DNA of 64,000 bases from the NCBI GenBank assembly GCA_965195345.1, contig OZ239628.1, forward strand, positions 1,312,001 to 1,376,000, in the 5' to 3' direction. The notes beneath the pieces were generated by a model, which was given only the letters and a program-made list of their open reading frames with translations, was not told where the DNA came from and did no database searches. Within the stretch, counting starts at the first letter, position 1, and every line of letters begins with the position of its first letter. This document shows, piece by piece, positions 10,702 to 46,216 of the stretch. This stretch comes from an uncultured Thiomicrospira sp. (GTDB lineage: Bacteria; Pseudomonadota; Gammaproteobacteria; CAKMZV01). The translations under genes were made by a program, and so were the position numbers.

Positions 10702-12768
10702 TTATACACTCGGCTTTATATGTTCCCAGATGATGGGATAGATGAACTGATGAAGAAATGTGCGTCCTTCAGGGTTATCGGCTATGGCAGTTTGAGTGCT
10801 GATGTTTTGACAAAAATCAACCTGATTTTGTAATGTACGCTTTTGTTGCTCAAGACGATGTAAGTATCCACGTTTTATGGGTGGGCGCTGCATCCATGAT
10901 TTCTTCTGTATTTCTCGAATTTCTCTATAGCACTTATCAATACTTTGTTCTATCTCATTAATACGACGATTAAAACGCTGATAGACTGTAGGAACGTACG
11001 CAGCTAATGCATGCAAATCGGATGATTTACTATGCCAAGCATTGGGAACGCACTGGCGACCGTACAATGTTTCCAAAAGTTCATGATTTTCGTCAGAATC
11101 TAATTGTTTACCTGAAACTTTTTCTCCAAATCGTTTGAAATCAGCAAGCACCAAATCCCACCAAATGAAGTCTGATCCTTTACCTTTCGGTGGCATTGCC
11201 AAAAATAAAGCAATGTGTTCTCTTTTAGCAAAGCGATAAATTAAATTTTCAGCTATGTGCTGAGCAGTTCGCCGCCCTATCGTATCAGCAATACAATCTG
11301 CCAATCGGGAAATAAAAGCATCAACTTCAGCAAGGAAATCATCCAAACTTTTCTTTGAGATACTGCTTGCGTGCCTGCCTCCACCAACCCTCCATAAGTT
11401 AGTGAACGGTTTATCACCAACAAAGACGCGAGAGGCTGACAAGTTAATCAGTTCATCTTTTGGTTGGCTTATCCGATCAGGATCATTGGCATTTCCGTAG
11501 CAGTAAACGAAACCAAAATGCCCTAATACTAAATTCGCAAAGTCAGGCGTAATGTTAAGATACATTTGTTCGAATGCAAGGCTTTCTGGATCGTTGCAGT
11601 TTCTGTTGGAACTGTAACTAAAGACTGCTTGGCGACAAACAATGTCTGCTGATGGTGTCACTAATGGGGGTTTTCCAGCATCTCTTCGCACGCGAGCAAC
11701 GTATTGTAAGTATGTATCAAGAAAAGCAATTTGTTCGTCGTGATTGGCTTCGGCATATTCTTTACTGAACTGAGTGCTCAGCATTTTAACAACCGATGGA
11801 ACCGCACCACCAGGAACACCTGCTAAGCAAAATCGCTCGCGTACATCTTGAGGAATTTGAGTATCAATGCGCGTTACATTTGCAAAATAACTATGAAGAT
11901 AATCTATGATTTTATTGAGTCCATCACGATTGAGCGTTTGAACGTTTTGAAGATCGACAAAGTCCATCATATCGTGGTGTGCTGTGCCACGAATTAAAGG
12001 AGGTAAGGCAAGTTCAATACCGTCTATATTACATGCCAATGCTGTTTCGATGGTTTTTAAGGATTGGCTCTCATAGGTAGAATGAATATGTAGAGTGATG
12101 GGATGATTAGGAAATGCTTGCTTAAGTCGAGTAATTAATTCTCTTGCGCGATCCGCACTAAGTTGTCCTGCCATATCTTTTATACATAAGGATTTAAAGC
12201 CCTTTTCAACCAGTTTACGCGCATAATTCAAATAATATTCAATCGTATAAATAGGTTCTTCGCCTGTTTTTAAATCACCGTCGGTGGTGTATGATAACGC
12301 CCCCTGCATATGAATATTGCTGTCAGCATCAAAGTTAAAAAAGTTTATATTTCTTATATCATTCAAAGCATCGAAAGTTCTGAAAACCTGAATGCCAGCT
12401 TGGGCATGTTGTCTGATTAGTTCTTCTTGTACACTGGGATCGACTGGATCAAATCCCATACCGTTGGGACCACGCATCAACACTTGCAATTGCAGCTTAC
12501 TATCTCTTTTATCCAAATTATCTATCTCGTCTTTCGATTTATGAATTAATCGAAAAGGATTCTGACCATTTAGAATCGCAATTTCCCAAAACCGTCCACC
12601 ACCAATCTCCATAGCAGGAATATTTGCTTCAATCGCAGCATCTGTCAACTCAATTAGCTTTGTACCACTTACAGCCCACTGATCATCAGCAAGTGTCGAC
12701 TGTTGAGAATCACGCAACAACCATAATATCTGCGTTTTATTCTCCGCTTGGGCTTTTTTTAAGTACAT
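10702..12768 (-). CDS. Divergent carboxyltransferase-domain protein (oxaloacetate decarboxylase alpha / pyruvate carboxylase / transcarboxylase 5S family), no biotin domain, unknown C-terminal region
   Basis: LRDSQQS, QVLMRG, FRTFDALND, CIKDMAG, LHIH, VPGG, GKPPLVTPSADIV match the family motifs in order; no AMKM biotinylation motif. Confidence 0.8.
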   Translation of the reverse strand: MYLKKAQAENKTQILWLLRDSQQSTLADDQWAVSGTKLIELTDAAIEANIPAMEIGGGRFWEIAILNGQNPFRLIHKSKDEIDNLDKRDSKLQLQVLMRGPNGMGFDPVDPSVQEELIRQHAQAGIQVFRTFDALNDIRNINFFNFDADSNIHMQGALSYTTDGDLKTGEEPIYTIEYYLNYARKLVEKGFKSLCIKDMAGQLSADRARELITRLKQAFPNHPITLHIHSTYESQSLKTIETALACNIDGIELALPPLIRGTAHHDMMDFVDLQNVQTLNRDGLNKIIDYLHSYFANVTRIDTQIPQDVRERFCLAGVPGGAVPSVVKMLSTQFSKEYAEANHDEQIAFLDTYLQYVARVRRDAGKPPLVTPSADIVCRQAVFSYSSNRNCNDPESLAFEQMYLNITPDFANLVLGHFGFVYCYGNANDPDRISQPKDELINLSASRVFVGDKPFTNLWRVGGGRHASSISKKSLDDFLAEVDAFISRLADCIADTIGRRTAQHIAENLIYRFAKREHIALFLAMPPKGKGSDFIWWDLVLADFKRFGEKVSGKQLDSDENHELLETLYGRQCVPNAWHSKSSDLHALAAYVPTVYQRFNRRINEIEQSIDKCYREIREIQKKSWMQRPPIKRGYLHRLEQQKRTLQNQVDFCQNISTQTAIADNPEGRTFLHQFIYPIIWEHIKPSV

Positions 12769-12790
12769 CTTTTATCTCTCGTTTAGACTC

Positions 12791-12806
12791 AGGGCGGGGT
12801 ATTATA
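12791..12806 (-). promoter_or_regulatory. Candidate -10 box plus GC-rich discriminator for the carboxyltransferase-like gene
   Basis: Minus strand reads TATAAT-ACCCCGCCCT about 32 nt upstream of the ATG; no recognisable -35. Confidence 0.45.
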
Positions 12807-26925: not shown

Positions 26926-27215
26926 TTGAATTTGCTGTTAAATACTTTTGATATACTTGCATCACCCATAAAATGTGTTTATTGCACTTTGTTTGCCAGC
27001 GACTCCTTATTCAGGGTTTATCTTTCAAAGATTTGAAAAATAACTATATATCATTTTTGATATTAATAAAGCCATTATGTAAATAAAATATAGACTAATA
27101 GATGACATTAGTATATCGTTTATGTAATTTATTGTTGAATAAGTTATTTTAAATTTCCACCTTGATTTCGATTGTAATTACATTTGAGATTACGGAAGAG
27201 TGTAAAATTTCAAGA

Positions 27216-28232
27216 ATGCATACAATCCTTTCCATTGATGGTGGCGGAATACGAGGCTTGATTCCTGCTCGCCTACTAAAGTGGGTTGAAAAAAGGCTTC
27301 AAGAGAAGACTGATAATAATGAATTGCGCCTTGCTGACGTGTTTGACTTCATGGCAGGAACATCCACTGGTGGCATTATGGTTAGTGCTTACCTTAAGGC
27401 GCATCCCGATACTAAGCGTCCTGAGTTTAGCACAGATGAAGTTGAACAGCTCTACATCAAAAACGGTGCAAAGATATTTGATTTGAATGCTTTTCAACAA
27501 CTAAAAAGCGGTTGGGGAATAGCTGACTCCAAATTCTCTTCAGCAGGTATTGAGGATTGTATGTTAAAGTATTTTGGCAATACAAAGACGAGTGAGTTAC
27601 TGCGTCCTTGCATAATAACTGCTTATGATTTGCACTCTCACAACAGTCTGTTTTTTGGTCAACATCATGCTTTGGAAAACCCCACTAAAGATTTTTATGT
27701 CCGTGATATAACGAGAGCGACTTCAAGTGCTCCGGTTTTCTTCCCAGCAGCCGATGTGTCAAGCATTGATGGGAAAAAAGAATTCTTATGCATAGATGGT
27801 AGCTTATTCGCATATAGCCCTGCTATTTCTGCTTATGCTGAGATGCGTCGGTTAAATCCAGAAGATCATGCCGATTCAATGTTCCTGTTGTCGCTCGGCA
27901 CAGGTGAAGCAGTATTAGATCATTCGCACGAAACAATTAAACACTGGGGCATGTTTGAGTGGTCACAAGTGCTTAGTGATTTGGTTTGCGACTCCAATGG
28001 GAACAACGTTGATTTTAACCTTAATCAAGTTTTCAGGAATTCTCCTGATCAATACTATCGGTTAAATCCAATGATAAAAGGCAAAGTTCCCATGATGGAA
28101 GCAAGTAAAAAAAGCATAAGAAATATTCTCACTATTGCAGATAGTTACATTGAAGAAAATCAAAGCCAGCTAGAGAAAATAGCAGATATATTATTCAAAA
28201 ATTTTGAAGAAAGATCATCAAAGATTTCATGA
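27216..28232 (+). CDS. Patatin-like phospholipase / acyl hydrolase
   Basis: ILSIDGGGIRG oxyanion motif, AGTSTGG (GxSxG), RATSSAPVFF, IDGS (catalytic Asp), LSLGTG. Confidence 0.93.
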   Translation: MHTILSIDGGGIRGLIPARLLKWVEKRLQEKTDNNELRLADVFDFMAGTSTGGIMVSAYLKAHPDTKRPEFSTDEVEQLYIKNGAKIFDLNAFQQLKSGWGIADSKFSSAGIEDCMLKYFGNTKTSELLRPCIITAYDLHSHNSLFFGQHHALENPTKDFYVRDITRATSSAPVFFPAADVSSIDGKKEFLCIDGSLFAYSPAISAYAEMRRLNPEDHADSMFLLSLGTGEAVLDHSHETIKHWGMFEWSQVLSDLVCDSNGNNVDFNLNQVFRNSPDQYYRLNPMIKGKVPMMEASKKSIRNILTIADSYIEENQSQLEKIADILFKNFEERSSKIS

Positions 28233-29908
28233 GAAAAGCATCATTAAACATTTCTAAACCTTGGTTAACAAGCTACCCTCCAGGGGTTCCAGAGTTTATA
28301 GATGCAGATAAATACGAAAACATTCCATTGCTAATTGATGAGGCTTGTCAAAAATTTAGCGAGCGCGTTGCCTTTGAAAACTTTGGTGCTCAGTTAACTT
28401 TTAAAGCAATGAAAAATTTGAGCGATGCTACTGCTGCTTGGTTACAAAGCCAATCTTTTGAACAAGGGGATCGTGTTGCTATTATGATGCCCAACTGCCT
28501 CGCTTACCCAGTCATTCTTCACAGCATATTAAAAGCAGGATTATGTGTTGTTAACATTAATCCACAATACTCTGTTCGAGAGCTTAAGCACGTTTTGAAT
28601 GATAGCAAGGCAAAACTCATATTTTTGTGGGAAGGATCCGCTCATACCCTAAGCATTACAAAAATAGATGCTCCAATAAAACTAGTACTCGTTACCATCG
28701 GTGATTTGATGGGCATCAAAGGTATTGCGATAAACGCTGTAATTCGTTATGTTAAAAAAGCAGTCAAACCCTTTTCAATGACAAGCGCAATACCTTTTTC
28801 AGAAGTCATTAAATTAGGGAAAAAACGAAACCTTCACCAAGTAAAAATCAATTCAACTGATACTGCTTTTTTTCAATACACTGGTGGAACAACTGGCGCA
28901 TCCAAAGCTGCAATTCTGACTCATCGCAATCTCATCGCCAATACCGAACAAGCGGACGCATACCTCAACCCTACTCTGACACGTGCTGATAAGCAGATAA
29001 CTATCATTGCGCCATTACCGCTGTATCACATCTTTTCACTTATGGTTAACGGTATATTGATGCCAAAACTGGGGGCACTGAATGTCCTCATTACTAATCC
29101 TAAAGATATATCTTCTTTTATTAAAACACTGAGTAGTCATAAATTCAATGCACTGCCTGGAGTAAATACACTGTTTGCGGCACTGCTTGATCATCCTAAT
29201 TTCGCTAGCGTTGATTTCTCACATCTGCAATTAACGCTTGGTGGTGGTATGGCTGTACAAAGCAATACCGCGCGCCAATGGCAAAGCACCACAGGGTGTC
29301 CAATACATCAGGCTTATGGCTTAACTGAAACTTCACCTGGGGTGTGTGTGATGCCTCACACTAATCTCGAATTTTCAGGGAGCATTGGCTTACCACTCCC
29401 CTCAACAGAAGTAGTCATTTTTGATGATTTCAATAACCCTCAGCCTACAGGAGAAATTGGCGAATTATGTGTTCGTGGACCGCAAGTCATGCAAGGTTAT
29501 TGGCAAGAGAACGAAGACATTGAGGATACTGATCACACCAACTGGCTACGTACTGGTGATATTGCTAAAATCGATGAAAATGGCTATGTGTATATAGTTG
29601 ATCGAAAAAATGATATGATCTTAACATCCGGCTTTAATGTATATCCAAATGAAATTGAAGATGTGTTAACCTCTCATCCTGCAATTAAAGAATGTGGTTG
29701 CATAGGTGTGGATGATGAGCGAAGCGGGCAGATAGTAAAAGCTTATATCGTTTTTAATGCTTCATTTGCTGCAACCGACGAAGAGTTAAAGGCATTTTGT
29801 GAAACACAATTAACCAGCTACAAAATACCAAAACTATTCGAATCCATTGATGCACTTCCGAAAAATAATGTCGGGAAGGTTCTTCGACGCGAACTACGTA
29901 CGATTTAA
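28229..29908 (+). CDS. fadD: Long-chain-fatty-acid--CoA ligase
   Basis: KPWLTSYPPGVP, QYTGGTTGASK, PLPLYHIFSL, YGLTETSP, RGPQVMQGYW, RTGD, SGFNVYPNEIE, GKVLRRELR. Confidence 0.93.
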   Translation: MRKASLNISKPWLTSYPPGVPEFIDADKYENIPLLIDEACQKFSERVAFENFGAQLTFKAMKNLSDATAAWLQSQSFEQGDRVAIMMPNCLAYPVILHSILKAGLCVVNINPQYSVRELKHVLNDSKAKLIFLWEGSAHTLSITKIDAPIKLVLVTIGDLMGIKGIAINAVIRYVKKAVKPFSMTSAIPFSEVIKLGKKRNLHQVKINSTDTAFFQYTGGTTGASKAAILTHRNLIANTEQADAYLNPTLTRADKQITIIAPLPLYHIFSLMVNGILMPKLGALNVLITNPKDISSFIKTLSSHKFNALPGVNTLFAALLDHPNFASVDFSHLQLTLGGGMAVQSNTARQWQSTTGCPIHQAYGLTETSPGVCVMPHTNLEFSGSIGLPLPSTEVVIFDDFNNPQPTGEIGELCVRGPQVMQGYWQENEDIEDTDHTNWLRTGDIAKIDENGYVYIVDRKNDMILTSGFNVYPNEIEDVLTSHPAIKECGCIGVDDERSGQIVKAYIVFNASFAATDEELKAFCETQLTSYKIPKLFESIDALPKNNVGKVLRRELRTI

Positions 29909-45119: not shown

Positions 45120-45310
45120 TGCTTTTTCAAAATAGAAGGTGGGTTATTTCTCAAAAAGAAAGAAATCATTGTAGCATCTCATAATACAAATGCGTTTGAT
45201 GAAATATACTTATACAAATGCCAAAAATCCTGAATATCGCCAACAAATAATTTGAAAATTACCGTTACAATAAGTAAAACAATAATGTATTGTTAACTTA
45301 CAATTATAAA

Positions 45311-46216
45311 ATGCCTTTAGAAATCAACCGCAATGTATTTATTACTTGTGCCGTAACTGGTTCAGGTAATACTCAAAATAAAACCCCTCACCTACCAATT
45401 ACCCCCGAACAAATAGCCAATAGTGCTATAAGTGCTGCTAAAGCGGGGGCTGCTATCGTCCATTGTCACGTAAGAAATCCTGAAACTGGCAAACCATCTC
45501 GAGACATCAAACTATATAAAGAGTTAACCGAGCGTATTAGAAGTGCCAATACTGATGTAATTCTTAATCTCACAGCTGGCATGGGAGGCGATATTGTTTT
45601 TGGGGATCACGAATCCCCTCTTCCTTTGAAAGAAAGCACTGATATGGTAGGTGCTAGTGAACGCATAACTCATATTGCGGAATGCTTGCCAGAAATCTGC
45701 ACGCTGGATTGTGGAACAATGAATTTTGCTGAAGCTGATTATGTTATGACAAACACACCTGGTGTGTTAAGAGCCATGGCTCAAATGATAACTGATCTAG
45801 GCGTTCGCTCTGAAATCGAAGCATTCGACACTGGTCATCTTTGGTTTGCTAAACAATTAGTTAAGGAAGGAATTATAAAAGATCCTGTACTAGTGCAATT
45901 ATGCATGGGAATACCTTGGGGTGCACCTGATGATTTGAACACTTTTATGGCAATGGTGAACAATGTTCCAACCAACTGGAATTGGTCTGCATTTTCTATA
46001 GGGCGCAACGAAATGCCTTATGTCGCCGCTGCCGTTTTAGCTGGCGGGAATGTTCGCGTAGGATTGGAAGACAATCTGTTTCTTGAGAAAGGAGTTTATG
46101 CAACCAACTCTCAACTAGTTGAAAAGGCAGTTAATATAATAGAAAATATGGGGGCTACTGTTTTAACTCCAGCGGAAGTTCGTGATAACCTGAAGTTAAC
46201 CAAACACAGTAGTTAA
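45311..46216 (+). CDS. Beta-keto acid cleavage enzyme (BKACE/DUF849), 3-dehydrocarnitine cleavage enzyme (CdhC)-like
   Basis: FITCAVTG, AGAAIVHCHVR (HxH), LTAGMGG, PEICTLDCGTMNF, GGNVRVGLEDN. Confidence 0.9.
   Translation: MPLEINRNVFITCAVTGSGNTQNKTPHLPITPEQIANSAISAAKAGAAIVHCHVRNPETGKPSRDIKLYKELTERIRSANTDVILNLTAGMGGDIVFGDHESPLPLKESTDMVGASERITHIAECLPEICTLDCGTMNFAEADYVMTNTPGVLRAMAQMITDLGVRSEIEAFDTGHLWFAKQLVKEGIIKDPVLVQLCMGIPWGAPDDLNTFMAMVNNVPTNWNWSAFSIGRNEMPYVAAAVLAGGNVRVGLEDNLFLEKGVYATNSQLVEKAVNIIENMGATVLTPAEVRDNLKLTKHSS

Follow-up and report, generated by a model that had tools for sequence, protein, structure and literature searches.

The window, by which we mean the whole stretch of 64,000 nucleotides that was analysed, carries on its minus strand a gene for a carboxyltransferase (CT) that has no biotin carrier, P0001 (Table 1). 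The 688-aa open reading frame and every motif quoted from it in an earlier note on this DNA, the heptad-like stretch included, were found as described. One contig of a public run, which is possibly the source sample, covers the reading frame with zero differences, and the GC3 of the gene is typical for the host genome, G000. Upstream lie folA, thyA and lgt (in the order lgt-thyA-folA), and a convergent SDR gene lies on the other side, with a short hairpin of a 6-bp stem between it and the P0001 gene (10630–10646), at which a terminator scan made no call. No oadG, oadB, biotin carboxylase or carrier gene was found among these neighbours.

The TATAAT that had been assigned to the gene is followed by ACCCCGCCC. 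The same hexamer is found 28 nt before the ATG of the orthologues in two members of the host's family, G001 and G002, while its chance expectation is ~0.03 per 110 bp. Although a consensus promoter scan made no call at this position, the recurrence of the hexamer upstream of both orthologues makes it a likely promoter of the P0001 gene. An Rfam search of the window gave no match. A mobile gene was rejected, as plasmids and phages had no full-length match and viral contigs had none, and so was a defence gene, as PADLOC matched none of four proteins. Elsewhere in the window, a gene at 45290–46216 resembles 3-keto-5-aminohexanoate cleavage enzyme of the beta-keto acid cleavage family, under the curated cut-offs, and a phospholipase-like gene at 27162–29908 (a weak match to a CBASS lipase model, under its cut-off) overlaps the 5' end of a fadD-type acyl-CoA ligase gene.

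Table 1 Features of the P0001 gene and its product (window coordinates)
Feature	Position	Strand	Remarks
Carrier-less carboxyltransferase gene (protein P0001)	10702..12768	(-)	688 aa, ATG start; orthologues in G001, G002, G004
Probable -10 box TATAAT and GC-rich stretch after it	12801..12806	(-)	32 nt 5' of the ATG
TIM-barrel catalytic domain, ~residues 11-277	11938..12738	(-)	Holds R19, D20, Q23, E54, L97, R99, F132, K197, M199, H227, H229
Arg59, the Ala610 site of the biotin pocket	12592..12594	(-)	Family rows: Gln 26, Arg 9, Asn 1, Ala 0 (n=36)
Funnel subdomain, ~residues 278-531	11176..11937	(-)	OadA/5S homology extends as far as the ALFLAMP motif
VTPSAD motif	11644..11661	(-)	Proton-shuttle Thr371 kept; biotin-binding Ser replaced by Ala374; Lys/Gln replaced by Asp375
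Lineage-specific tail, residues 532-688, in the place of the biotinyl domain	10705..11175	(-)	~157 aa; matches no known domain

P0001 includes the Arg-Asp, Gln, Arg, Lys, His-x-His and Thr set of the OadA/PycB/5S superfamily together with a PYC_OADA funnel (PF02436, 36.3 bits against a cut-off of 27), and hhalign against CT gave a probability of 100 over 428 columns, with homology reaching ~residue 531. The barrel boundary was placed by alignment with the barrel as delimited in PMC9581989. P0001 is inside the CT superfamily, its scores lie well under all curated cut-offs for OadA, PycB, PC and 5S, and it does not qualify as OadA, PycB or 5S. In the funnel, the carrier-closing helix is altered to GGAVPS. 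P0001 lacks a C-terminal biotinyl domain, and a biotinyl motif was present in none of 70 locus-derived proteins of its family.

The C-terminus had been described as ~200 unrecognised residues; it is indeed without a known domain, but the reach of CT homology leaves only the shorter tail of Table 1. Searches of this tail returned a sub-threshold Spc7 coiled-coil match in Pfam, Ndc80 alone in the PDB (E 0.7–1.2) and nothing reaching 0.8 in the Atlas. No membrane span was found in it, and the heptad-like stretch occupies residues ~596–652. A tail common to the whole family was also rejected: tails are conserved inside lineages and unrelated between most subclades, the Akkermansiaceae and P0005 groups excepted. 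In 14 unsaturated family pairs, among which P0001 itself has no close enough relative, the dN/dS of the tail was ≤0.055 in 11 and 0.15–0.60 in three, and between G001 and G002 dN/dS was 0.027 in the tail as compared with 0.013 in the core.

Relatives were collected by profile searches and a genome scan; 18 of 359 sequences, with an incomplete core, were dropped, and filtering the remaining 341 by identity left 132. Thirty-six non-redundant rows were assigned to the family by rank and motif (RDxxQST, ExxGG[Q/R], KDM[S/A]GQ, HxHST, G[V/I]PGGA[M/I]P and VTP[T/S]ADI) ahead of tree building. Fragments aside, the relatives are ~610–1040 aa long. In the 132-row tree the family forms one side of a long branch with an SH-aLRT of 100, in an unrooted tree in which long branches may attract, and the likewise unrooted 51-row mixture-model tree supports the split at 100/100. 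Both place the family outside the canonical OadA, PycB, PC and 5S set, as the separate subfamily that had been suspected, and P0001 itself branches apart from P0025 and P0030 and is not placed with 5S. The earlier note had reckoned with the outcome that P0001 nests in a canonical clade with a normal partner elsewhere and a known domain in its tail, or else that it lacks both full-length homologues and purifying selection; we found instead a family of its own, with orthologues at 53–57% identity and low dN/dS in family pairs.

The named hosts are Pseudomonadales, Cellvibrionales, Akkermansiaceae and Verrucomicrobiales MAGs, Thiohalocapsa, Chromatiaceae and Thiomargarita. In the host's class the gene was found in three of 400 genomes, two of which are the host genome and its genus mate. 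It is near-core in one Pseudomonadales family (17/21 genomes) and present in 24 of 151 Akkermansiaceae genomes, its subgroups there corresponding in large part to the PEP carboxylase subgroups. The host's family has four other genomes, of which G001, G002 and G004 contain the full-length orthologues, and the remaining one, G003, has canonical oadGAB in place of the gene. Members are labelled in databases as hypothetical, pyruvate/oxaloacetate carboxyltransferase or oxaloacetate decarboxylase alpha subunit.

No operon is conserved past genus-level synteny; the neighbours of the family gene vary and are often housekeeping genes, and the gene was never found in a catabolic operon. A set of 82 family loci, 583 kb in all and in many cases with flanks of just 1.5 kb, contained no carrier, biotin carboxylase or oadB motif apart from one spurious off-frame match, and none of these loci showed linkage to acc genes. 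The CT family of P0001 is small and apparently undescribed, and its gene stands alone throughout. In two metagenome members (L219 and L222) it lies directly 3' of a gene that we take to be a gcvP-like glycine dehydrogenase gene, and in L223 it lies near what is presumably a serine dehydratase-like gene; both arrangements are possibly incidental.

A second set of 17 long-tailed carrier-less CTs (P0180, P0181, P0185, P0186, P0188, P0190, P0194, P0206, P0209, P0213, P0218, P0227, P0228, P0246, P0262, P0266 and P0303) falls between the P0001 family and the canonical CTs. In nine of the 17 the Ala610 site holds Thr, which makes them natural A610T variants, and 16 keep the biotin-binding Ser; the set may represent a transitional stage or a family of its own. 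Six genomes (G148, G066, G111, G101, G130 and G155) encode a carrier-less canonical CT of 505–555 aa and have no biotin carboxylase or PEP carboxylase match, which suggests ATP-independent transcarboxylation.

The 36 family rows were compared residue by residue with 79 canonical CT rows, in R. etli and human numbering that is partly presumed. The motifs of P0001 are RDSQQS (19–24), EIGGGRFWE (54–62), KDMAG (197–201), HIH (227–229), GTAHH (261–265), AGVPGGA (316–322) and VTPSADIV (370–377). Thirteen metal and keto-acid (pyruvate) residues are kept, 12 of them in 36/36 family rows and Met720 in 33/36. P0001 has the metal ligands D20, K197, H227 and H229 and the keto-acid-binding shell of R19, Q23, R99, L97, F132 and M199. 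Thr882 and Lys718, which are needed for catalysis rather than binding, are present in all 36 rows at a mean column identity of 22% in the alignment. Eight biotin- or carrier-site residues, Ala610, Asp590, Tyr628, Gln/Met844, Asn847, Gln851, Ser885 and Lys/Gln886, are retained in 0–1 of 36 family rows as against 72–77 of 79 canonical rows; for Asp590, Tyr628, Gln844 and Lys886 we presume the biotin- or carrier-site role.

At the Ala610 site, a pattern search of the 70 locus-derived proteins, which include near-copies and overlap the 36-row set, found Gln in 67. Sites 59 and 62 are paired, as Gln/Gln in 23 of 36 rows and Arg/Glu in eight, representing few independent events, and Tyr628 is replaced by Phe in 32 of 36, so that an aromatic ring is retained. 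New invariant polar residues surround the biotin slot: Gln/Arg59, Gln/Glu62, Asp375, Gln202 and Glu252. Thr at the Ala610 site inactivates PC (PMC5059739), Ser870 binds biotin, and helix 827–840 closes on the carrier, a role of Thr867 being described as well (PMC9581989). Residues 844–851, altered in the family, sit on this carrier-closing helix (helix role per PMC9581989).

As a control, 84 columns that are conserved in canonical CTs were followed: the family keeps 45 and loses 25, and just eight of the 25 lost columns are the listed biotin sites, the remainder including the ATR and EDPW loops. Judged from these alignments, the protein surface is widely remodelled, the contrast between 13/13 residues kept and 0/8 kept is sharp, and the altered part is the biotin/carrier site. 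The earlier note had the substrate pocket re-tooled; the alignments point the other way, as the pyruvate-site residues are kept, and a different keto-acid substrate is the least supported of the three options it offered. The GTAHH that it counted as a distinctive change is present, but His264 within it is shared with 21 of 79 canonical CTs.

The host genome, a single contig that is 99.7% complete, encodes one CT, one biotin carboxylase (beside accB) and one biotinyl protein, AccB, ~75 kb from the P0001 gene. No oadB was found in G000, G001, G002 or G004, and tblastn gave no oadG match in G000, so that the orphan status claimed for the gene holds at its locus and genome-wide. G000 has neither a dedicated 1.3S-type biotinyl subunit, a biotinylation motif within a biotinyl domain being found in AccB only, nor a dedicated biotin carboxylase for P0001. 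It encodes PEP carboxykinase, pyruvate kinase, malic enzyme, isocitrate lyase and an FAH-family protein, and is without PEP carboxylase and PEP synthase. Within the host's one small family the whole pyruvate node varies: G003 has oadGAB and PEP synthase, without ATP-type PEP carboxykinase or pyruvate kinase, and the other four genomes have the family gene, ATP-type PEP carboxykinase and pyruvate kinase, without PEP synthase.

Among 47 bearer genomes, PC was found in none and the OadGAB pump in six, in a survey in which most genomes are incomplete MAGs and kin are not independent. A simple replacement of the pump holds in the host's family and is contradicted by the six genomes that have both. 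In Akkermansiaceae, PC was found in 0/24 bearers as against a PC-like match in 75/127 non-bearers by hand count, a pattern that requires just three changes on the PEP carboxylase tree. In G324 the family gene is the sole CT, and both family relatives of G324 carry pycAB. PEP carboxylase was absent from all 11 gammaproteobacterial bearers tested and present in 24/25 verrucomicrobial bearers; in Akkermansiaceae it accompanies PC (24/24) and the family gene (24/25) alike. Malic enzyme had no match in 15/25 verrucomicrobial bearers, and ATP-type PEP carboxykinase was found in 0/3 of those tested. PEP synthase/PPDK showed no pattern linked to the gene across genomes. AccB was ordinary in all 16 bearers from which its sequence was recovered, with no special feature seen. 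No bearer was free of biotin proteins, as biotinyl/lipoyl domains were found in 71/71 genomes scanned. The PEP carboxylases of 53 sampled Akkermansiaceae-group genomes (L126–L178) are of two deep types, and of the 24 PC genomes in this group, all with PEP carboxylase, 23 had no malic enzyme match.

The P0001 family probably works without biotin. What it would then catalyse is less certain, and our favoured, still tentative reading, among those offered in the earlier note, is a soluble, metal-dependent enzyme that acts alone, descends from the OadA/PycB CT and would convert oxaloacetate to pyruvate and CO2. Oxaloacetate would be bound as in PC and its C4 carboxyl would leave as free CO2; the enolpyruvate would be stabilised by the metal and the arginines, and C3 would be protonated by Thr371, which would be reloaded from water or the new Asp375 and not from biotin. 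The Gln/Arg59–Gln/Glu62 pair would fill the biotin slot, the direction of Arg59 being presumed, and the tail might, at a guess, serve in assembly or regulation.

This decarboxylase reading is favoured by the kept metal and keto-acid residues against the lost biotin sites, with the Ser and the carrier-closing helix both altered, by the lack of a dedicated partner in G000 and of partner motifs at the 82 loci, and by the gaps in malic enzyme and ATP-type PEP carboxykinase among verrucomicrobial bearers. The absence of PC from bearers would be expected, because a futile cycle would be avoided. A precedent exists in another fold, as biotin-independent MdcD-MdcE resembles acyl-CoA carboxyltransferase (PMC5534430). 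Against it, the lost columns extend past the biotin pocket, six bearers also have the OadGAB pump, and a PC domain without its carrier kept no activity in an oxamate-induced assay (PMC5895798). In G000, an extra route from oxaloacetate to pyruvate would be redundant, since PEP carboxykinase with pyruvate kinase, malic enzyme and the FAH-family protein are present. The missing PEP carboxylase of the gammaproteobacterial bearers suggests that their gap lies on the carboxylating side, and since every AccB examined is ordinary, the bearer genomes are compatible with the use of biotin in trans.

The last two points lead to the main rival, which makes the partner docking proposed in the earlier note concrete and which we consider serious, if unlikely: P0001 would be the CT of a three-part PC, or a transcarboxylase, that makes use of the AccB and AccC of acetyl-CoA carboxylase, its remodelled funnel and lineage-specific tail docking the foreign carrier. 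The gene stands where PC stands, in Akkermansiaceae as in G324, and its coexistence with the pump, the lack of PEP carboxylase in gammaproteobacterial bearers and the equal company that PEP carboxylase keeps with PC and with the gene all agree with this proposal. The gene distribution fits the replacement of PC at least as well as it fits a decarboxylase. The aromatic ring at Tyr628 and the invariant Thr882 also speak for it. However, Ala610 is replaced by Gln/Arg and Ser885 by Ala, and biotin would have to pass a residue far larger than the Thr that blocks PC. The AccB of bearers is unspecialised, linkage to acc was never seen, the exclusion of PC amounts to few events, and in G000 isocitrate lyase could cover anaplerosis.

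Somewhat improbable as well is another biotin-free chemistry of the pyruvate enolate, either an aldolase that joins pyruvate to an aldehyde or keto acid lodged where biotin used to sit, or a tautomerase for the keto and enol forms of oxaloacetate. The sequence pattern behind it is identical to that behind the decarboxylase reading, the new invariant polar residues that ring the slot could suit it, and it would not be redundant with the PEP carboxykinase or malic enzyme of G000. Related barrels act as aldolases. The repair of enol-oxaloacetate is a known need (PMC10825186), but G000 already has a protein of the FAH family, to which the known tautomerase belongs. The absence of a catabolic operon, with variable and often housekeeping neighbours, counts against this alternative, and the exclusion of PC is left without explanation. 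A variant that we consider distinctly unlikely has the family fill the place of PC by biotin-free C–C chemistry, in which the pyruvate enolate would be added to an acceptor that Gln/Arg59 and Asp375 hold in the vacated slot; if true, this would be an unrecognised reaction at the pyruvate–oxaloacetate node that explains both the altered pocket and the bearers without PC. A non-catalytic pyruvate or oxaloacetate sensor or scaffold, with the tail as output domain, is very improbable: selection on the tail is as strong as on the core in most close pairs and yet tails are unrelated between most subclades, a pattern often shown by partner-binding domains, but Thr882 and Lys718, the residues of catalysis, are kept throughout and no partner gene is conserved.

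To our knowledge, the characterised members of the superfamily (PC, OadA, 5S and the ketone carboxylases) all need carboxybiotin. P0001 shares the CT barrel and funnel, all metal and keto-acid residues and ~30% identity over the barrel with OadA, the alpha subunit of the Na+-pumping oxaloacetate decarboxylase (TIGR01108; PDB 2nx9). It differs from OadA in its score of 160 bits against a cut-off of 756.5, the missing biotinyl domain, the absence of oadB and oadG from G000 and the altered biotin pocket. With PycB of the two-subunit PC (PDB 5ks8) and the CT domain of single-chain PC it shares the catalytic centre, and in two lineages the bearers carry the family gene and their relatives carry PC instead. 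P0001 has neither a carrier domain nor a dedicated biotin carboxylase, it scores 176 bits against a cut-off of 734, and of the PC biotin pocket (Ala610, Asp590, Tyr628 and Ser885) each residue is found in 0–1 of 36 family rows, with Gln/Arg in the family at Ala610. Transcarboxylase 5S (PDB 1rqb) is the best PDB sequence match of P0001 (E 1.6e-28) and is, like it, a stand-alone CT without a fused carrier; P0001 reaches 139.7 bits against the NCBIfam cut-off of 827, and the only biotinyl protein of G000 is AccB. Proteins of the 5S type keep the biotin pocket and have 1.3S and 12S partners.

The biotin-independent oxaloacetate decarboxylases (the soluble type of C. glutamicum, the malic-enzyme-derived type and the PEP mutase/isocitrate lyase type) differ in fold and would share with P0001 the proposed reaction and its metal dependence. 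Four oxaloacetate decarboxylase types are given in the accessible part of a review, with no biotin-free OadA-type CT in that part (PMC8100219); should P0001 prove to be a decarboxylase, the count would rise to five. If it instead uses AccB and AccC, it would represent a PC that shares parts with fatty-acid synthesis, which is likewise undescribed in the literature searched. The CT subunits of the ketone carboxylases HpeB/XccC, likened here by description, are divergent and free-standing as is P0001, and their own carrier and biotin carboxylase are encoded alongside (PMC9618137); such operons are absent from the P0001-family loci. In our literature search, outside whose coverage most subscription papers lie, neither the family nor a biotin-free CT of this fold was described. 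The gene is inherited across several Akkermansiaceae lineages and is unnamed or labelled OadA, so that metabolic models of its bearers are probably wrong at the pyruvate–oxaloacetate node. MdcD-MdcE of malonate decarboxylase, which is CT-like and decarboxylates without biotin (PMC5534430), offers an evolutionary precedent, but it has the acyl-CoA carboxyltransferase fold, a thioester substrate and an unrelated sequence. The P0001 family, a natural family in which the catalytic centre is kept and the biotin site is replaced, is a ready experiment on the contribution of biotin.
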